A stretch of DNA of 64,000 nucleotides from Escherichia phage Killian, in the sequence record OQ446694.1; one strand, given 5' to 3'. Position 1 is the stretch's first letter; each line of letters opens with the position of its first letter. The notes beneath the pieces are model-generated. The model made no database searches and was not told the origin of the DNA. It was given only the letters and a program-made list of their open reading frames with translations. Positions 28,908 through 36,049 of the stretch are shown here, piece by piece. Made by a program: the position numbers and the translations under genes.

Positions 28908-28980
28908 GTAATTCTCCTTTTATTTAAATTACATGACTATTTATAATAAATTCTCACAGCTTTTAAGCCGTCGTTTATAT

Positions 28981-29500: not shown

Positions 29501-30151
29501 TTATTTTTCCTTTCTTATGAAGTTTTCTATCATATGTCTATAGCAGATATTAGGATAACCTGCCTTGACAGCTATTTTATTAAATTTTGTGCGCTTAGGC
29601 CTATTATTATAAACCCATAATTCATAAAGCGCATCATAACTATTCCATATTTCTCCTCGCCTAGGATTTGGTAAACCATATCGAGGTGAATTTTTACCGC
29701 TAAATCTTCCTTTTCGGGCTTTACTCATATTAGCCTTGGCTTCATCGGATATAATTTTACCTTTATGAGCTAGACGCATTTTGGCTTTAGTTTCTTCTGG
29801 GGTCTTTTTGCCTTTAATCCATGACGGCTTGCCATATCTAGGATTATTTTCACCCGAGAAAAGAGCAGAGTTTTGAATTTTAAGGGTTTCTATTAATCTA
29901 CTTGTTAATTTAACACCTTTATTATATCGCATTAAATTTACAGCATAATGCAATCCTCTCACATCTGGATATATTTTAGTTAATAATCTATGAGCTATAA
30001 AATGCTCACGCGCAGTTAACTCAACAAAATTGTTTTTGTCATCTGCTCCTCCCATACATCTAGGAATTATATGATGGCGTTCTTTATATCCACCAAGATG
30101 CCGGCATTTAGCTTTTGTAATTAAAGCCGAGTAAATTTTTTGGTAATTCAC
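29501..30151 (-). mobile_element. Free-standing HNH homing endonuclease gene (216 aa, GTG start)
   Basis: HNH core ERHHIIPRCMGGADDKNNFVELTAREHFIAH plus repeated NPRYGK-type motifs; GTG start with SD AAGGA; stop abuts gene 56 start. Confidence 0.75.
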
Positions 30152-30221
30152 ACATATCCTTTCAATTCATGGATTAGTAGATTAATTATACAATAAATAT
30201 ATAAAGCAATAAGGAGGACAT

Positions 30222-30422
30222 ATGGTACAAAAATTAATGGCACTTGTCGATGCCATAAAAGGTAATAAGAAACGTATAGCTTTTACTATTTCTGCTATGG
30301 TAGGAATTTTACTCTGGAATTTTGTTTTATCGCCAATTGCTATTGCTCATGGCGTTAATATTCCAGTAATTACTCTTGATACATTCGTAGATTTAGCATT
30401 TGCTTTGGTTGGGTTAATTTAA
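30222..30422 (+). CDS. Small two-helix membrane protein on the opposite strand (66 aa)
   Basis: ATG preceded by strong SD AGGAGG; hydrophobic segments ISAMVGILLWNFVLSPIAIA and VDLAFALVGLI; stop overlaps gene 61 stop on the other strand. Confidence 0.5.
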   Translation: MVQKLMALVDAIKGNKKRIAFTISAMVGILLWNFVLSPIAIAHGVNIPVITLDTFVDLAFALVGLI

Positions 30423-31447
30423 ATCTTAGCATATTTAGATAGTCGCATTTTAGCCATCAACCCTTGGGCAATATTATTTTTCATATATTCCATAATTTGT
30501 TCAGGGGTTGCACCTTCCTTTCTAATCATATCATTGACATCTTTTGATTTCCAGGGAGATTTGTCCCAAAACATAACCCTTTCTCCTGCATCAACTAATT
30601 TAGTCATTCGTTTAATAGTGTCAGGGTGACGAGGTTCATTATCTAAAACCCACACGCGTCTATCTTTAAATGGAACAATTTCTAGGTCTAATTGACCACC
30701 TGTAATAGCTATACCATTTTCAATAAAAAGTGAATCTATAGGTCCTTCTAGAACATATACATCGCCATCTTTAACCCGTTCGACTCCATAGATTTTTGTT
30801 GCCTCAGGATAAGCTTTGATGGTGATATATTTTTGAGGAGCATCTTTCTTTAATGCACGTCCTTGAAAAGACTCAGCTTTTCCATTAGCATTATAAATTG
30901 GAATAACAAGACGAGGCTCAGGTATTTCCTTTTTATATGTTCCTGGTGCTATACTATTAACTAATTTAGGCCATTCAGTTGTAAACCAAAGATATTTCCA
31001 TTTATCCTTTGGAATACAACGAGCTTTTACATATTTTATAATTGGATGGTCTTCCGCCAGTTTATCTAATCTAATACATGACGGAAGAGATTTAATTATT
31101 TTCTTCTCAGGTTGTTTAGGAAGTTCTTTAGGTTTTTCTACTGGACGACTTTTACCTTTTTCTTTTCTTATTTCAAAGATATACTCACGATATAAATCAG
31201 GTTCAAACTCCTTTAAATATATTCCGATTGGTGCATGATAGTTACAGTTATAACAATGAATATTTCCTTCATTATTATCGCCATAATACCATCCACGGGC
31301 TTTATTTTGGTCGGTTTTTGAATCTCCACAAACAGGACATCTAAACCGTAATTTAAAAGTTGAACTATTATTTACTTGTGCGAATTTAGGTAAATGAGCC
31401 AATGCACGGTATGCAAACTCATTATCAATCCAAGGTATTGATGACAT
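30419..31447 (-). CDS. 61: DNA primase gp61 (342 aa)
   Basis: Zinc ribbon CPVCGDS...CYNC and TOPRIM region; 342 aa as in T4; synteny with gene 41. Confidence 0.93.
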   Translation of the reverse strand: MSSIPWIDNEFAYRALAHLPKFAQVNNSSTFKLRFRCPVCGDSKTDQNKARGWYYGDNNEGNIHCYNCNYHAPIGIYLKEFEPDLYREYIFEIRKEKGKSRPVEKPKELPKQPEKKIIKSLPSCIRLDKLAEDHPIIKYVKARCIPKDKWKYLWFTTEWPKLVNSIAPGTYKKEIPEPRLVIPIYNANGKAESFQGRALKKDAPQKYITIKAYPEATKIYGVERVKDGDVYVLEGPIDSLFIENGIAITGGQLDLEIVPFKDRRVWVLDNEPRHPDTIKRMTKLVDAGERVMFWDKSPWKSKDVNDMIRKEGATPEQIMEYMKNNIAQGLMAKMRLSKYAKI

Positions 31448-31449
31448 TT

Positions 31450-31614
31450 TTACTCTTCTTTTTCTTTAGATTCCTCTTTTTTCTTTTTAGGAATCTGTTC
31501 AGGACCTTTATTTACTACAGCACCTGACGTTGTTCCAGTGGAGATATTTTCAGGATTACCACCTGAATCTCCAGCTACCATATCTTCTTTAATAAATTCT
31601 TTATATGTTTTCAT
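31450..31614 (-). CDS. Small hypothetical protein (54 aa), 61.1 position
   Basis: Hand translation MKTYKEFIKEDMVAGDSGGNPENI... Confidence 0.4.
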   Translation of the reverse strand: MKTYKEFIKEDMVAGDSGGNPENISTGTTSGAVVNKGPEQIPKKKKEESKEKEE

Positions 31615-31615
31615 A

Positions 31616-32242
31616 TTAACCTCTATTCATAAAAGCATTAAAAATTTGGTCATCAATAGAAACATCTACTTTAGACTGTTTTTCTGATGGTAATTCATAT
31701 CCACATATTACAATTTTGTGATCAATATCAAAATACACAGAAGCAATATGATTAATGATGTTTTCAGTAAAGTCTAAATCAACATCAATATCTTTTTGAC
31801 CACAGCCCAAAGGATAAATAATGCGAGTAATTCGATCATCTTTAACAAAGATTCCACCGACATACTCTGTGCTGTGTTTAAAATCTACACGCCGACGAAA
31901 TGAAAAATATTCAGGCTCTTTATGAGCTCTGCTTATAGGACATAACGAGTAACTAGAATAAGAGATGTCAAATCCTACGCCTTCAATATGAGCCAAATTA
32001 TCATGATTAAACCAATTATAATCGTACGCCAAATCCATTAGATTATAATATGTAAAAGGCACCGGATTAACATCATTAGTCACAAGCATATAATTAGTAA
32101 CTGCTATAATTTCATTGTTTTTAACGAATACAAACCGTGATTGATGTGAATGACCCGGACCCGCGTTTTCACGATTAATGATATAACACTGGGCACCTTT
32201 ATATTTGTATGTATCTTTACACTTGTGCATTTGATAGAGCAT
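31616..32242 (-). CDS. Hypothetical protein (208 aa), 61.2 position; possible anti-DarT factor AdfA homolog
   Basis: Position between 61.1 and sp; assignment to AdfA is by synteny and recalled literature only. Confidence 0.5.
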   Translation of the reverse strand: MLYQMHKCKDTYKYKGAQCYIINRENAGPGHSHQSRFVFVKNNEIIAVTNYMLVTNDVNPVPFTYYNLMDLAYDYNWFNHDNLAHIEGVGFDISYSSYSLCPISRAHKEPEYFSFRRRVDFKHSTEYVGGIFVKDDRITRIIYPLGCGQKDIDVDLDFTENIINHIASVYFDIDHKIVICGYELPSEKQSKVDVSIDDQIFNAFMNRG

Positions 32243-32535
32243 TATTCACCTACCACTTCAGCGATGATATTTTTATTATTAAAGTTTTTATCGCAATACA
32301 GAACATAATTATACTGCATTACACCACCAGACTTAAGTTGTTTTTGCACCTCAGCTTTCATTTCAGGACGATCACGCTCAACGATATTCATAATATCTGC
32401 TTCAATTTGAGTTTCAACCTCAGTCTGGTCTGCAGTCATAGACCACTCACACAAATCTTTATCATAACCTGCCATAGCAGGCTGAGCAGCACAAGAAGAT
32501 AAAGCAAAAATTGCAGCAAAGATAAATTTTTTCAT
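32242..32535 (-). CDS. sp: Spackle periplasmic protein Sp (97 aa)
   Basis: MKKFIFAAIFALSSCAAQPAMAGYDKDLCEW... with signal peptide; matches T4 Sp as recalled. Confidence 0.9.
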   Translation of the reverse strand: MKKFIFAAIFALSSCAAQPAMAGYDKDLCEWSMTADQTEVETQIEADIMNIVERDRPEMKAEVQKQLKSGGVMQYNYVLYCDKNFNNKNIIAEVVGE

Positions 32536-32593
32536 GATAATCTCCTCAGTAGTTTATGTTTATAGTATCTCAATTTCCAATAAAAGTAAACAA

Positions 32594-32851
32594 TTATTTT
32601 AAAACTTCTGCATAATCACATGCTACAAACTGTTTCTCTAACTTGACGATTTTACGAAAGTATCTTTTGCATTGACGAATCTGTCGCTTCGTAGGGCGCA
32701 CAGCAAACTTAATAAATTCCACTCGACCAAATGGAGGACTTTCTTCTGCTGGAATATCTAATACTAATTCCCACGTATCTGCAATAAGTGCTTTGAATTG
32801 AGTATTTTTCCTAACATTATACGGAGTAGGTTTAAATAAAACGATATGCAT
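32594..32851 (-). CDS. Hypothetical basic protein (85 aa), 61.4 position; possible ToxN inhibitor TifA homolog
   Basis: ORF track trimmed to the ATG at 32851 with SD GAGGA just after the dmd stop; TifA assignment is by synteny only. Confidence 0.45.
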   Translation of the reverse strand: MHIVLFKPTPYNVRKNTQFKALIADTWELVLDIPAEESPPFGRVEFIKFAVRPTKRQIRQCKRYFRKIVKLEKQFVACDYAEVLK

Positions 32852-32852
32852 A

Positions 32853-33035
32853 TTATCCTCGGCAATCCACTTCGCATACTTTCTTGTCATCAATGAAAGC
32901 TTTAACTAGTGCTTTATTAACTTCAGCATATTGATTAGTAGCCCAGTGAACGTCATCTTTCATCATTGTGATTTCTTTAGTAAACATGCTTTCATTCTTA
33001 AACCACCCCATAAAAACTACCTTTACCAATTCCAT
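32853..33035 (-). CDS. dmd: Dmd antitoxin (60 aa)
   Basis: MELVKVVFMGWFKNESMFTKEITMMKDDV... matches T4 Dmd as recalled. Confidence 0.92.
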   Translation of the reverse strand: MELVKVVFMGWFKNESMFTKEITMMKDDVHWATNQYAEVNKALVKAFIDDKKVCEVDCRG

Positions 33036-33064
33036 AACAATCTCCTCATTTAACCAACAAGACT

Positions 33065-33093
33065 ACTATACCATAGTCTTGTCAGCTTGTAAA
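33065..33093 (-). promoter_or_regulatory. Early sigma70-type promoter upstream of dmd
   Basis: Minus strand TTTACA-17 nt-TATAGT, directly after the gene 41 stop. Confidence 0.5.
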
Positions 33094-34521
33094 CTAAAAT
33101 TTTAATTCATTTGCCAAAGCATCTAACTGAGCTCGAGCGGATTCGTTTCTTTGATAGCGATTCTGTTCAGCCTGAATCTGCTGTGAACCTGCTACTTCGT
33201 TCACTTCAGTTGGAGTAGAATCTTGTTCAATTTCTACCCATTTCTGATTTCCTTTTTGAACACCCATCAAAAACTTATTCCATTTATTCTTATCACCGTA
33301 TCGTGATTTGATTTGCTTAATGAGTTGTTGTTCAGCAGCTGCTAGCTCCTCGGTTTCAATGACCGCAAGCATAAAATCGGCTGTTGCTGGAAGGCCGGCA
33401 GATTCTGCAATATCGCTCATGTTAACATCAGAAGAGTCCCAAGCTTGTTTACCAACCTGTGCTGCGGTCCAAAGAACAGTTTCGGTTTCAACAGCCAGAG
33501 CACGCAATTCCTCTGCGATAGCTTTAACAGTTGTGTAACTATTTTCTGAATAAACTCTGATGCGGCAAGATTTACAAATACCCAGATAGTCAACAATAAT
33601 GATTGTTGGAACAAAATTCTTCTTGAGCTTCAATTCATTCAAGAGAGACCTGAATGTATTAGCGTCTGCTCCACCAGTAGGATACTGTTTAACGATTAAA
33701 CGTCCAAGAGTAGATTTCTCACGCCATTTTTCCATTTTTCCTTTATACTCAGCGTAAGAAATATGCCCATCATCAATGTCATCAAGAGAAACATCAAGCA
33801 TATTAGCATCAATACGCTTAGCACAGACTTCTTCTGCCATTTCCATGGAAATGTAAAGAACATTATGTCCGAGCTGCAAATAATCTGCTGCCAATGAACA
33901 CAGACCTAATGACTTACCGACGTTAACACCAGCCATTAAAACGTTCAGTGTTCCAGTTTCAGCTCCGCCTTTAGTAATTTTATTTAGAATTTTGAGTTTA
34001 AATGGAACCTTACGAGCTTTATTCATATAAGATAGCCAACGTGCTTCGTAGTCATCCATCCAATCATGACCAACGTAACTATCAAATGAAATTGATAATG
34101 CTTGGCGCATGATGTCAGGAATAGCACCAACATCCGGCATTTTCTTATTTCGTTTTTCCGGAGGAAGCTCAGCATTAGTTTGAATTTCAATTATTTTAGA
34201 TGTGGCGTTAAACATCGCCCTTTGCTGAACATATTTTTCTGTTTCTTTTACTAACCAACTATGGTCTTCTGGCGAATCGGCCAGTTTTGAAATAAGTGTT
34301 TTTACACCAGAATATTCTGTTTCAGTAAATGAACTATTTTCTAATGCAACATTTAACGCATTAATAGATGGAACGCTATGGTATTCATTAACATGAGATT
34401 TAATTAATTTGAATGTATTTTTAGCTGGACCACTTTCAAAATATTCTGAATCCATATATGGCCAAACTTTTGAAAAATAAGCTTGATCAAATATGAGATG
34501 GGAAAGAATAATTTCTACCAC
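33094..34521 (-). CDS. 41: Replicative helicase gp41 (475 aa, GTG start)
   Basis: MVEIILSHLIFDQAYFSKVW...; DnaB-family Walker A GVNVGKS; GTG start with SD AAGGAG. Confidence 0.93.
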   Translation of the reverse strand: MVEIILSHLIFDQAYFSKVWPYMDSEYFESGPAKNTFKLIKSHVNEYHSVPSINALNVALENSSFTETEYSGVKTLISKLADSPEDHSWLVKETEKYVQQRAMFNATSKIIEIQTNAELPPEKRNKKMPDVGAIPDIMRQALSISFDSYVGHDWMDDYEARWLSYMNKARKVPFKLKILNKITKGGAETGTLNVLMAGVNVGKSLGLCSLAADYLQLGHNVLYISMEMAEEVCAKRIDANMLDVSLDDIDDGHISYAEYKGKMEKWREKSTLGRLIVKQYPTGGADANTFRSLLNELKLKKNFVPTIIIVDYLGICKSCRIRVYSENSYTTVKAIAEELRALAVETETVLWTAAQVGKQAWDSSDVNMSDIAESAGLPATADFMLAVIETEELAAAEQQLIKQIKSRYGDKNKWNKFLMGVQKGNQKWVEIEQDSTPTEVNEVAGSQQIQAEQNRYQRNESARAQLDALANELKF

Positions 34522-34530
34522 ACTTACTCC

Positions 34531-34875
34531 TTAAAAGAATTTAAATTTTTTCTTTGACCTTTTATTAAATGCATCTTGTAGTTGCATTGTAATACATTTT
34601 TCTACATGAGGAGCTAACTCAGCTTTTCTTTCTTGGTCAAGAACAGCAAAGTCCATTACGACTTTTCCATCAACCCAATCTAATTTTGTCACATACACAA
34701 TGTGTGTAGAACCATCTTCTAGTTTAATGACAATCTCCTGGATAACATTTTCCATGGCAGATTTAATTATCTTAAGAGATTCATTAAAAAGACGTTCTTT
34801 TCTTTCTTCTTCCCCCTCCGAAGAGGGGGATTCATCGATAATTTCTAGATCTAAATCTAAATCATCTTTATTCAT
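34531..34875 (-). CDS. 40: gp40 head-assembly protein (114 aa from ATG; 120 aa from GTG)
   Basis: Position between uvsX and 41; acidic N-terminus; start ambiguous. Confidence 0.6.
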   Translation of the reverse strand: MNKDDLDLDLEIIDESPSSEGEEERKERLFNESLKIIKSAMENVIQEIVIKLEDGSTHIVYVTKLDWVDGKVVMDFAVLDQERKAELAPHVEKCITMQLQDAFNKRSKKKFKFF

Positions 34876-36049
34876 TAAATTCTTCCATATCACTTAACTG
34901 ATCTAGGTCAGTTTCTAAATCAGCTGCTGATTTACTTTTACTTTCTGGAGATTTAAATTTTTCAACCTTTGAGTTAATCAATTCATCAACTTCAGCTTCA
35001 ACAATTTCATTACTATCAATAGCACCTAACTGATAAGCACGTTTAATAGCATCTCGGAATGGTTGATGCTTAAATAAAGGACCCCAGAATGTAGTGCAAT
35101 TGGTATCTTTTGCACGCCAAGATTTTTCTTCGCGAATCATCTCGCCAGTTTCTTCGTCAAGAAATTCACGAGCATACCAGCCATTTTTAGGTTTTACCAC
35201 AAATCCTAATTCAAGAGCCATATCTAACAATCCAGAATAAGGATCGATGCCACCGTCAAATTTAACATCAATAAAGAATTTACTTTTTTCTTTAACGGTA
35301 CGAGATTTTTCTACATTTAGAACAAATTGATACCCCTGAAGATCAGAACCATCTTTAATCTGGCGCTTACCGATAATGAATACAGTATCAGCCGAATACA
35401 TTACGCCTGTACCACCTGTCATCACGGTTTTACTAAACATTTCAATTGTTTCAATTGTATGGTTAACCGCAACACACGGAATGTTTTTAATACTAAAATA
35501 AGGAGTAACAATACGGAATAATGACTTCAGTGATTTAGCACGAGTCATATCTGCCACAGATTTTTCATTCAAGGCATCTTCCGTTTCTTTCTTAGAAGCC
35601 ATATTACCAATTGAGTCGATGAATACAATAACTTTTTCACCACGCTCAATAGCTTCAAGCTGATTCACCATATCAATTTTCAGCTGTTCAACTGACTGAA
35701 TTGGTGTATGAATTACTCGTTCCGGGTCAACTCCCATGGATCGCAAATAAGCTGGAGTAATACCAAATTCGCTATCATAGAATAGACATACCGCGTCAGG
35801 ATATTTGTTCAAATACGCCGCAACCATAGTCAAAGACATATTTGATTTAAAGTGTTTAGAAGGACCTGCAAAAATGGTTAAACCAGACTGCATACCACCA
35901 TCAATCGCACCAGAAATAGCGATATTAAGCATTGGGATTTTTGTACGGATTACATCCTTTTCATTAAAGAATTTAGATGTAGTCAGTTCAGCAGTCATTT
36001 TAGAAGTGGAAGCTTTAATCAAACGGGATTTTAAATCTGCAATAGACAT
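34868..36049 (-). CDS. uvsX: Recombinase UvsX (393 aa)
   Basis: RecA-like; Walker A GPSKHFKS; C-terminal acidic tail; matches T4 UvsX closely. Confidence 0.95.
   Translation of the reverse strand: MSIADLKSRLIKASTSKMTAELTTSKFFNEKDVIRTKIPMLNIAISGAIDGGMQSGLTIFAGPSKHFKSNMSLTMVAAYLNKYPDAVCLFYDSEFGITPAYLRSMGVDPERVIHTPIQSVEQLKIDMVNQLEAIERGEKVIVFIDSIGNMASKKETEDALNEKSVADMTRAKSLKSLFRIVTPYFSIKNIPCVAVNHTIETIEMFSKTVMTGGTGVMYSADTVFIIGKRQIKDGSDLQGYQFVLNVEKSRTVKEKSKFFIDVKFDGGIDPYSGLLDMALELGFVVKPKNGWYAREFLDEETGEMIREEKSWRAKDTNCTTFWGPLFKHQPFRDAIKRAYQLGAIDSNEIVEAEVDELINSKVEKFKSPESKSKSAADLETDLDQLSDMEEFNE

Follow-up and report, generated by a model that had tools for sequence, protein, structure and literature searches.

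T4-type anti-toxin genes between the primase and helicase genes of a T4-like phage, and a possible capsid connection of the small protein gp61.1

Gene content and relation to T4

Five small genes were found between gene 61 (DNA primase; 30419-31447) and gene 41 (replicative helicase; 33094-34521) in the window, that is, the whole 64,000-nucleotide stretch of DNA analysed. All five are encoded on the minus strand, as are both flanking genes, and the ORF listing contains exactly the set that the first-pass annotation had placed here. Read from the helicase side, they are dmd (32853-33035; 60 aa), tifA or 61.4 (32594-32851; 85 aa), sp (32242-32535; Spackle, 97 aa with its signal peptide), adfA or 61.2 (31616-32242; anti-DarT factor A, 208 aa) and 61.1 (31450-31614; 54 aa). 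The tifA ORF starts with an ATG at 32851 and is nested within a 99-aa ORF with a TTG start. The genes are closely spaced, with one nucleotide between dmd and tifA and between adfA and 61.1, two nucleotides between 61.1 and gene 61, and a one-nucleotide overlap (gap of -1 nt, TAATG) between sp and adfA. Two intergenic regions of 58 nt each separate gene 41 from dmd and tifA from sp. In the comparison of the window with T4, dN/dS was 0.04-0.21 for all five, so that purifying selection acts on them and they are genuine genes, not ORFs that arose by chance.

The top DNA match to the segment is phage UGKSEcP1 (99.7%), and 329 phage records match it over at least 80% of its length. The five proteins are 95-98% identical to their T4 orthologues, and the gene layout and ORF lengths are identical to those of T4 (NC_000866). 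Residue differences from T4 number ten in AdfA, three in Sp and two each in TifA, Dmd and gp61.1. We conclude with high confidence that the phage behind the window is a Tequatrovirus (T4-like phage) and that 31450-33035 is the orthologue of T4 61.1, 61.2 (adfA), sp, 61.4 (tifA) and dmd, comprising two early units and encoding three small inhibitors of toxins from host toxin-antitoxin abortive-infection systems together with Sp. In published T4 proteome and transcript classes, dmd, tifA, sp and adfA are assigned to early RNA and early protein.

The dmd-tifA operon and adfA of T4 have been treated in the literature as an 'anti-TA island' (Srikant, Guegler and Laub 2022, eLife; LeRoux et al. 2022), and the window has the same order, ORF lengths and proteins with near-identical intergenic sequences; the differences are allelic only and none is qualitative. 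The earlier description of the segment as an anti-defence islet is appropriate for Dmd, TifA and AdfA, which are anti-toxin proteins, but it does not extend to Sp, a superinfection exclusion factor, and the island had already been published. Scans with PADLOC and NCBIfam gave no matches for any of the five proteins, an Rfam scan of 30000-35000 (E up to 0.1) returned nothing and a terminator scan found none.

Dmd and TifA

Dmd matches the Pfam family of that name (E 9e-45), and its residues 1-60 match PDB 5hy3_B, 'Antitoxin Dmd' (E 4e-36); the Pfam families and solved structures uphold the initial calls of both dmd and spackle. Two nonsynonymous differences separate dmd from its T4 counterpart. 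Dmd is an RnlA inhibitor (PMC9391042), and the protein of the window would act as an antitoxin mimic that blocks the RnlA/LsoA RNases by direct binding.

TifA is 98% identical to T4 gp61.4 over all 85 residues and matches Pfam DUF7279 (E 2e-20) and phrog_2375 (E 2e-38), which bears out the proposal that the basic 85-aa ORF is a TifA homolog. By direct count the protein is basic, with 17 K+R against 9 D+E, and residues 52-70 (RPTKRQIRQCKRYFRKIVK) are strongly basic and constitute the central positive cluster. Its length equals that of the T4 protein and the C-terminal extension of the T2/T4/T6 type is present. T4 61.4 has been renamed tifA following its demonstrated inhibition of ToxN, and both binding and inhibition of ToxN have been demonstrated for the TifA proteins of T4, T2, T6 and RB69 (PMC9391042). 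TifA of the window is predicted to block the ToxN endoribonuclease by direct binding.

The sequence 5' of the tifA ATG reads ...tgccGAGGataatATG, and the tifA Shine-Dalgarno element (GAGG) lies within the last dmd codons. The start of tifA one nucleotide after the dmd stop and the placement of its Shine-Dalgarno element inside dmd were thus confirmed as first described, and in the literature the pair is one operon under an early T4 promoter 5' of dmd (Srikant et al., PMC9391042). The first transcription unit would run from an early promoter through dmd into tifA, with tifA translationally coupled to dmd.

Spackle and AdfA

Sp matches the Pfam family T4_Spackle (E 3e-45) and aligns over its full length with PDB 6x6o (E 1e-60). 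The alignment with the mature chain of 7cn6 begins at residue 23, behind an N-terminal signal peptide leader (MKKFIFAAIFALSSCAAQPAMA), and T4 Spackle (6X6O, 7CN6) has the same 97 aa with signal peptide as Sp of the window. Spackle acts in the periplasm, where it inhibits the tail lysozyme gp5 of superinfecting phage (PMC7677548); the protein of the window would be exported to the periplasm and block the gp5 lysozyme of T-even phages that superinfect. Superinfection exclusion of this kind is directed by phage against phage and is not counter-defence, so that an 'anti-defence' label fits Sp poorly.

The 208-aa ORF in the 61.2 position, for which AdfA had been suggested, is indeed AdfA: residues 1-208 match positions 1-211 of the 211-position model of Pfam PF23813 (E 3.8e-133), and the protein is 95% identical to T4 gp61.2. 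His165 (IINHIAS) aligns with an Arg in Mosigvirus (RB69-type) AdfA (NINRIAS). This is the position of the activating R164H change in RB69 AdfA, and both the window and T4 proteins have His there. AdfA with His at 164 associates with DarT1 (literature on 61.2), and AdfA of the window may block the DarT1 DNA ADP-ribosyltransferase by direct binding. Deletion of adfA from T4, however, gave no phenotype on DarTG1 even without adfN (literature), and for this reason the activity of the near-identical allele in the window is uncertain.

Work on the proteins of T4 or RB69 established the functions of Dmd, TifA, AdfA and Sp, which are carried over here by 95-98% orthology. The value of the cluster lies in correct annotation, as a phage with dmd, tifA and adfA alleles of the T4 type, and such a phage probably resists RnlAB/LsoAB and chromosomal ToxIN, like T4. 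The idea that the neighbours of the known genes are candidates for uncharacterised counter-defence functions had already been published, with the remaining genes of the island called 'attractive anti-toxin candidates' (Srikant et al. 2022, PMC9391042). Two of the three proteins so highlighted in the first-pass annotation, TifA and AdfA, are already characterised, and the homology of the third, gp61.1, points to the capsid. The counter-defence cluster of 61.1, adfA, sp, tifA and dmd is known T4 biology; the new lead is gp61.1 alone.

Intergenic elements

A site resembling an early promoter was found 5' of dmd (33065-33093, minus strand), with TTTACA, a 17-nt spacer and a TG-extended TATAGT (10/12 with extended TG in the promoter scan). 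We infer that this is the early promoter driving dmd-tifA. The intergenic region between gene 41 and dmd differs from T4 and RB51 by one base. It also contains a stable hairpin (33052-33087, minus strand; MFE -18.9 kcal/mol) that overlaps the -10 element of the promoter, folds better than all of 200 shuffled sequences (0/200 fold as well; z = -4.3) and is kept in T4 and RB51. This hairpin could be a 3' end or a stabiliser for the gene 41 mRNA.

The region between tifA and sp (32536-32593, minus strand) carries a promoter-like element as well as the ribosome-binding site of sp. Apart from a 2-nt deletion, its sequence is near-identical in T4 and RB51. The element (about 32562-32591, minus strand) consists of GTTTAC, an 18-nt spacer and TACTAT; it was picked by eye and is absent from the promoter-scan list. 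A promoter downstream of tifA is mentioned by Srikant et al. (PMC9391042), and the element is a candidate for it. The second transcription unit would lead from this promoter through sp, adfA and 61.1 into primase gene 61, all of which abut or overlap.

A 19-nt direct repeat (family D2) flanks dmd-tifA on both sides. One copy lies at the ribosome-binding site and start of sp (32530-32548, no strand assigned) and the other at the ribosome-binding site and start of dmd (33030-33048); the two are 500 nt apart and 84% identical. Segmental amplifications of dmd-tifA have been described (PMC9391042), and these repeats are candidate microhomology for such events.

Leader, gp23-like module and tail of gp61.1

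The 54 residues of gp61.1 (96% identical to T4 gp61.1) can be divided into a leader (residues 1-10), a segment like the gp23 N-fist (11-38) and a lysine-rich tail (43-54). The leader, MKTYKEFIKE, was compared with MKTYQEFIAE of the internal proteins IPII and IPIII, and Y4, F7, I8 and E10 are identical. Experimental mapping has assigned positions 4 and 7 of the capsid-targeting sequence to targeting and positions 8 and 10 to processing (literature). The likeness extends to the DNA, where 26 of the first 30 nt of 61.1 are identical to ipII and ipIII, and the T4 genes 61.1 and ipI agree at each of their first 22 nt. IPI, IPII and IPIII share with gp61.1 the N-terminal decapeptide, its four determinants and its coding DNA, and in about 140 kb searched in six frames the leader motif was confined to ipI, ipII, ipIII and 61.1.

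Behind the leader, residues 11-38 show homology to the beginning of mature gp23*, the 'N-fist'. Pairwise comparison of gp61.1 and gp23 gave 43% identity over 37 residues (E 6e-9; gp23 residues 57-94), a segment that takes in Glu65, the cleavage site, as well as the N-fist. When the gp61.1 family profile was run against all 177,635 PDB sequences, gp23 chains were the sole matches (best E 1.2e-5, residues 58-94). Profile searches, proposed earlier for the 54-, 208- and 85-aa proteins, returned PF23813 for AdfA and DUF7279 for TifA, while the gp61.1 family profile found gp23 only among PDB sequences. The Gp23 model now in Pfam begins at gp23 residue 88 and so leaves the shared segment uncovered. 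The gp23 N-fist contacts four subunits and helps to form the Soc sites (literature). Unlike gp23, gp61.1 is missing the whole HK97-fold body and has the lysine-rich tail instead.

The similarity to gp23 is kept in five divergent phages from different genera, at 13-19 of 30 positions. Clear covariation of gp61.1 with the gp23 N-fist of the same phage was not seen in the five phages compared; gp23 is near-invariant there, and the match of gp61.1 to its own gp23 was elevated only in Aeromonas phage 31.2 (19/30). Across 50 clusters of the gp61.1 family, a hydrophobic-x-Glu precedes the conserved module almost always, and what comes before the module is a domain of about 105 residues or else a short leader, which often resembles a capsid-targeting sequence. 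The domain of about 105 residues has no Pfam match, and it resembles none of the ORFs in 43 kb of T4 (including genes 20-23 and 67/68), where the long forms hit only gp61.1 and gp23, by way of the module they share. A KKKK/KKRK cluster is conserved in the family. Counted directly, the net charge of the mature peptide predicted for the window is about -2, and many homologues have more basic tails. An AlphaFold2 model of gp61.1 was of low confidence (pLDDT 59.5, pTM 0.18), too low to make a fold search informative.

Possible role of gp61.1

These features suggest that gp61.1 may be a prohead-targeted and protease-processed peptide that mimics the gp23* N-fist, a reading that we consider a real possibility, still short of likely. 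The 10-residue leader would direct the protein to the prohead core, as happens with internal proteins, and the gp21 prohead protease would cut after Glu10. The cut would release a 44-residue peptide beginning at Asp11 (DMVAGDSGGNPENIS...), whose N-terminus would mimic the gp23* N-fist and whose lysine-rich tail could bind DNA. It is conceivable, if somewhat doubtful, that gp61.1 is a fourth T4 protein with a capsid-targeting sequence, combining an interchangeable leader, a gp21 site, a free copy of the N-fist and a lysine-rich tail, and that it is packaged and processed, with the 44-residue peptide being injected with the DNA or residing in N-fist sites of the shell.

Internal proteins carry the capsid-targeting sequence, and IPI* inhibits GmrSD (literature). 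Like the ip genes, 61.1 is classed as early RNA in T4. Several properties set gp61.1 apart from the internal proteins, however. It is far smaller, with 44 residues after the predicted cut, and the mature peptide predicted for the window is not strongly basic as the basic internal proteins are. The internal proteins are hypervariable whereas gp61.1 is much more conserved across genera, and in most genera the domain of about 105 residues stands in place of the short leader. Finally, internal proteins are packaged and injected, whereas gp61.1 is absent from reports on virions and from the detections in the T4 proteome, where its class in the time-resolved data is 'NA'. We found no literature report of gp61.1 in virions, including in the supplements of a T4 head mass-spectrometry paper, and the two papers that mention it do so in gene tables. 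Small cleaved peptides mostly exit the prohead (literature). A late promoter (TATAAATA) was not observed near 61.1, the closest site on the minus strand being at 28938; this is weak evidence against packaging because the ip genes are also early RNA. The protein resembles an internal protein and is not classed as one here, since its cleavage and packaging are unobserved and it is undetected in the T4 proteome.

The same homology would also allow gp61.1 to act on capsid assembly by a route other than packaging, for example by mimicking the N-fist in free form or by competing as a substrate, and so to modulate gp21 cleavage, gp23 expansion or the formation of Soc sites; it would then not be delivered to the next host. 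The match to gp23 57-94, covering both the cleavage site and the N-fist, agrees with such a role, and the T2 record labels the orthologue a 'putative head morphogenesis protein'. We hold it to be rather unlikely, as transcription is early, the literature consulted describes no unassigned capsid component and the protein went undetected in the T4 proteome.

A cytoplasmic anti-toxin function like that of the neighbouring genes, suggested in the first-pass annotation and by Srikant et al. for the rest of the island, has some points in its favour: 61.1 and adfA belong to one early transcription unit, 61.1 is located in the published anti-TA island whose other genes were named as candidates (PMC9391042), and the protein is small and disordered like some inhibitors. 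Against this, the protein was found in 1396 phage records with hosts including Escherichia, Klebsiella, Acinetobacter and Aeromonas, its gene always a short way upstream of the primase gene, compared with 674 records for TifA and 486 for AdfA. In Aeromonas phage 31.2 and vibriophage phi-pp2, which lack the islet, the genes run helicase, 61.1, primase. The core of the protein is highly conserved and not arms-race-like, its sole detectable homologue is the N-terminus of a capsid protein, and PADLOC and NCBIfam are silent on it. An anti-toxin role is quite unlikely on this evidence. Judging from these records, gp61.1 is an old, near-universal Straboviridae family beside the primase gene and not an accessory gene of the island type, because it is kept there across Straboviridae even without the rest of the islet.

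That persistent position could instead be taken to indicate an accessory of the primosome or of replication, or a leader ORF that governs translation of the primase. The order 41, 61.1, 61 is kept out to Aeromonas and Vibrio phages, the 61.1 stop lies 2 nt from the gene 61 ATG with a weak gene 61 ribosome-binding site inside 61.1, and the lysine-rich tail could bind nucleic acid. Tight coupling is not kept, however, as the gap between 61.1 and the primase gene is 39-47 nt in phages O157tp3, Lazarus and 31.2, and a homing endonuclease or other ORF intervenes in VPA32 and SemperBestia. Moreover, gene 40, which encodes a head-assembly chaperone, lies in the same replication cluster, so that position says little, and homology to the gp23 cleavage site and N-fist together with an internal-protein leader has no obvious rationale in replication. 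We give this explanation little credence.

If gp61.1 is indeed a prohead-targeted N-fist mimic, it would be a new component of a virus assembly system that is among the best studied. The capsid-targeting sequence, by which foreign cargo is loaded into T4 heads, would then have an evolutionary source, and the origin of the targeting leader of the internal proteins would be tied to the site of gp23 maturation.

Two further ideas on gp61.1 were considered and rejected. A role as a decoy for the Gol peptide of the Lit protease was dropped as Gol, at about gp23 residues 93-122, lies just past the homologous gp23 segment 57-94. Programmed frameshifting in the A-rich 61.1 tail was likewise set aside, no proper slippery heptamer being apparent by eye. 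A T6-type variant of 61.1 reads through into gene 61.

Gene content of the 61-41 segment

Seven minus-strand genes abut from 41 through 61, as observed in the ORF scan and the raw sequence, namely the gene 41 helicase (33094-34521, 475 aa), dmd (32853-33035, 60 aa), 61.4 or tifA (the 85-aa ORF, 32594-32851), sp (32242-32535, 97 aa), 61.2 or adfA (the 208-aa ORF, 31616-32242), 61.1 (the 54-aa ORF, 31450-31614) and the gene 61 primase (30419-31447, 342 aa). This confirms the five small genes that the first-pass annotation had placed between 61 and 41, and the sequence also agrees with its claim that tifA starts (ATG at 32851) 1 nt past the dmd stop with a GAGG lying within dmd. Three more junctions are tight as well, with a -1 nt gap at sp/61.2 (TAATG overlap), 1 nt at 61.2/61.1 and 2 nt at 61.1/61.

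The closest DNA was found in Escherichia phage UGKSEcP1 (99.7% identity), followed by hundreds of Tequatrovirus records at 95-99%, and both the gene order (61, 61.1, 61.2, sp, 61.4, dmd, 41) and the ORF lengths are exactly those of phage T4. Protein identity to T4 is 96% for gp61.1, 95% for gp61.2 and 98% for gp61.4, with two nonsynonymous differences in Dmd and three in Sp. The five small ORFs are real genes, since dN/dS relative to T4 is 0.04-0.21 across all of them (61.1, adfA, sp, tifA and dmd).

Known members of the cluster

The AdfA family model (Pfam PF23813, E 4e-133) identifies the 208-aa protein as a full-length member, and this together with its identity to T4 gp61.2 bears out the proposed assignment. 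The definition of AdfA comes from RB69, in which the change R164H leads to association with and neutralization of DarT1; the window protein, as in T4, has His at the aligned position and the AdfA of a Mosigvirus (RB69-type) has Arg. However, deletion of adfA in T4 gives no phenotype on DarTG1, even without adfN. The suggestion that the 85-aa protein is a homolog of the ToxN inhibitor TifA also holds up; it is TifA, and differs from T4 gp61.4 at only 2 of 85 residues. Genetic and biochemical evidence identified T4 61.4, renamed tifA, as encoding a protein inhibitor of the ToxN RNase (PMC9391042); no solved TifA structure was found. Dmd, an inhibitor of RnlA (PMC9391042), matches its Pfam family and the solved 'Antitoxin Dmd' chain 5HY3_B.

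Sp matches solved Spackle structures, with the mature chain beginning at residue 23. Spackle inhibits the gp5 tail lysozyme and thereby causes superinfection exclusion (PMC7677548); this is phage-versus-phage exclusion, and sp cannot be retained as a counter-defence member of the islet. The gene identifications are therefore correct, yet the cluster is already known from published work. Among the three ORFs flagged for profile search as uncharacterized counter-defence candidates, two are characterized orthologues (AdfA and TifA) and 61.1 remains, so that the interest of the segment rests on the gp61.1 lead only.

A variable interval between 41 and 61.1

When other Straboviridae were compared, the genes lying between 41 and 61.1 proved to vary. 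Nothing is encoded there in Aeromonas phage 31.2 (order 41, 61.1, 61), a Karamvirus has a spackle gene and four unknown ORFs, and Acinetobacter and Cronobacter phages carry different cargo. The interval of one Mosigvirus contains two unknown ORFs, Dmd, a DUF5481 protein, an Imm-like superinfection-immunity protein, a 97-aa ORF of spackle size at the place of sp, AdfA and another unknown ORF. The Imm-like protein (locus L009 of Mosigvirus O157tp3, 1894-2142; Pfam Imm_superinfect, E 1.5e-15) adjoins the ORF in the sp position, and the hotspot therefore gathers exclusion genes as well as anti-toxin genes. Phage records with AdfA number 486 and those with TifA 674, nearly all of them from Escherichia/Shigella-type phages. 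These comparisons support the view that the interval is an accessory-gene hotspot for counter-defence and exclusion genes.

In phage RB51, 61.2 and 61.1 are separated by an additional ORF of 118 aa (locus L008, 3135-3491) with the annotation 'similar to gp61.2', which is absent from the window, and the C-terminal half of the window AdfA also matches a separate 118-position PHROG profile (phrog_4122, E 5e-7). Both observations suggest a possible family of partial AdfA paralogues.

Distribution and architecture of gp61.1

Homologues of gp61.1 occur in 1396 phage records with Escherichia, Klebsiella, Acinetobacter, Aeromonas, Enterobacter and other hosts. In every locus inspected 61.1 lies directly upstream of the primase gene, separated from it by one inserted ORF at most, and it is placed likewise in the KVP40-like vibriophage phi-pp2. 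The gene is part of the conserved backbone; it belongs to the islet by position, between 61 and 41, and by evolution probably lies outside it. Given this company, a primosome-linked factor was considered and appears doubtful; a cytoplasmic counter-defence protein, as its other neighbours might suggest, is judged just as improbable.

An exhaustive representative search gave 50 clusters of 50-251 residues. These clusters share a conserved module, (D/E/A)MVAGDxGG...NIAxGxTSGxV...GP...KKKK, which almost always forms the C-terminal part and has a hydrophobic-x-Glu just before it. The region ahead is either a short leader, often resembling a capsid-targeting sequence (MKTFNEL..., MKSFTEF..., MIKFKDFVE...), or a roughly 105-residue domain of the phrog_2086 type, as in Mosigvirus, Karamvirus, Lazarusvirus and Pseudotevenvirus. 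Such a design, in which the leader varies while the protease-type site and the mature peptide are conserved, is what would be expected of a prohead-targeted protein processed by the prohead protease gp21.

The tail of gp61.1 carries a conserved KKKK/KKRK cluster. T6-type variants (P0002 and P0004) have a frameshift in the A-rich lysine-coding run at the 3' end of 61.1 (window 31450-31490), after which the protein continues as ...KKKKRNLKKKKSKNVINTLD and runs into the beginning of gene 61. The acidic tail is therefore dispensable, and both frames retain the lysine cluster.

Similarity of gp61.1 to internal proteins and gp23

In gp61.1 the leader, MKTYKEFIKE, corresponds to the capsid-targeting sequence of the T4 internal proteins IPII and IPIII (MKTYQEFIAE), and IPI begins MKTFKEF. 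According to a review of Black's work, residues 4 and 7 of this sequence determine targeting and residues 8 and 10 processing; gp61.1 is identical at all four. The likeness extends to the DNA, where the first 30 nt of 61.1 share 26 positions with ipII and ipIII, and T4 61.1 and ipI are identical over the first 22 nt. A six-frame search for MK[TS][YF].[ED][FV] across 43 kb of T4 sequence, the 64-kb window and a further 35 kb from other phages found only ipI, ipII, ipIII and 61.1.

Residues 2-38 of gp61.1 are also 43% identical to residues 57-93 in gp23, the major capsid protein (E 6e-9). When a 14-sequence family profile was compared with all 177,635 PDB sequences, only gp23 chains were found (best E 1.2e-5; profile positions 3-39 against gp23 58-94). 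Within that gp23 segment fall both the site cut by gp21 (Glu65 | Ala66) and the 'N-fist' of mature gp23*. This 25-residue element passes from the inner to the outer side of the shell during expansion, touches four subunits and has a part in forming the Soc sites. Database auto-names ('major capsid domain-containing protein'; in T2, 'putative head morphogenesis protein') indicate that this similarity has already been picked up mechanically; our literature search found no paper interpreting it. The end of the gp23 propeptide, F59-G-S-F62-L63-T-E65, fits [FY]xxF[LI]xE, as do positions 4-10 of the capsid-targeting sequence (Y-Q/K-E-F-I-A/K-E), with determinants 4, 7, 8 and 10 mapping to F59, F62, L63 and E65. 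This hints that the leader may derive from the gp23 maturation site.

On these grounds gp61.1 may be a prohead-targeted peptide, a tentative reading to which we give somewhat less than an even chance. Several observations count against packaging. The protein went undetected in the T4 time-course proteome (class NA; PMC9697503 supplement), the literature search found no report of it in virions, and no late promoter was found near 61.1, an objection tempered by the 'early RNA, late protein' class also assigned to ipI, ipII and ipIII (PMC9697503 supplement). Small cleaved peptides mostly exit the prohead, the predicted mature peptide of the window gp61.1 is slightly acidic, and the AlphaFold2 model is essentially disordered (pLDDT 59.5) except for a helix spanning residues 4-13. 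No clear covariation is seen between the gp61.1 and gp23 segments. A capsid-assembly modulator, the other reading that involves the capsid, is considered unlikely.

Transcription units and intergenic features

There are two intergenic regions of 58 nt each (41-dmd and tifA-sp). The first differs from T4 and RB51 by one base and contains, upstream of dmd, a promoter-like TTTACA, a 17-nt spacer and a TG-extended TATAGT, which fits as a candidate for the early promoter that drives dmd-tifA (Srikant et al., PMC9391042). The second is near-identical to T4 and RB51 except for a 2-nt deletion; upstream of sp, a GTTTAC, an 18-nt spacer and a TACTAT element were identified by eye, a putative fit to the 'promoter downstream of tifA' mentioned by the same authors. 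The deleted TA (window 32562-32570) lies just past the -10-like TACTAT. Two putative promoters and abutting genes therefore point to two early units, dmd-tifA and sp-adfA-61.1-61. In T4, 61.2, sp, 61.4 and dmd are classed as early RNA and early protein (PMC9697503 supplement).

A strong hairpin (33052-33087, minus strand; -18.9 kcal/mol, z -4.3) directly follows the gene 41 stop, where it overlaps the -10 element of the putative dmd promoter; T4 and RB51 also have it, and it is not followed by a U-tract. Direct repeats of 19 nt (84% identical) at 32530-32548 and 33030-33048, 500 nt apart, bracket dmd-tifA; they are formed by the regions around the ribosome-binding sites and starts of sp and dmd, which are near-identical. 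The repeats are a plausible source of microhomology for the tandem dmd-tifA amplifications selected on ToxIN.

ORFs downstream of the primase gene

A 216-aa ORF downstream of 61 (29501-30151, minus strand) has an HNH-like N-terminus, recognized by eye, and NUMOD3 repeats (Pfam NUMOD3, E 3e-7), and probably encodes a homing endonuclease; T4 has no gene at this place, only a 309-nt gap between dam and 61. On the opposite strand, a 66-aa hydrophobic ORF (30222-30422, plus strand) shares 4 nt with the 3' end of gene 61. It is without annotation in T4; RB51 'RB32ORF030w' is 95% identical to it, and a Mosigvirus has an ORF of about this size at the same place.
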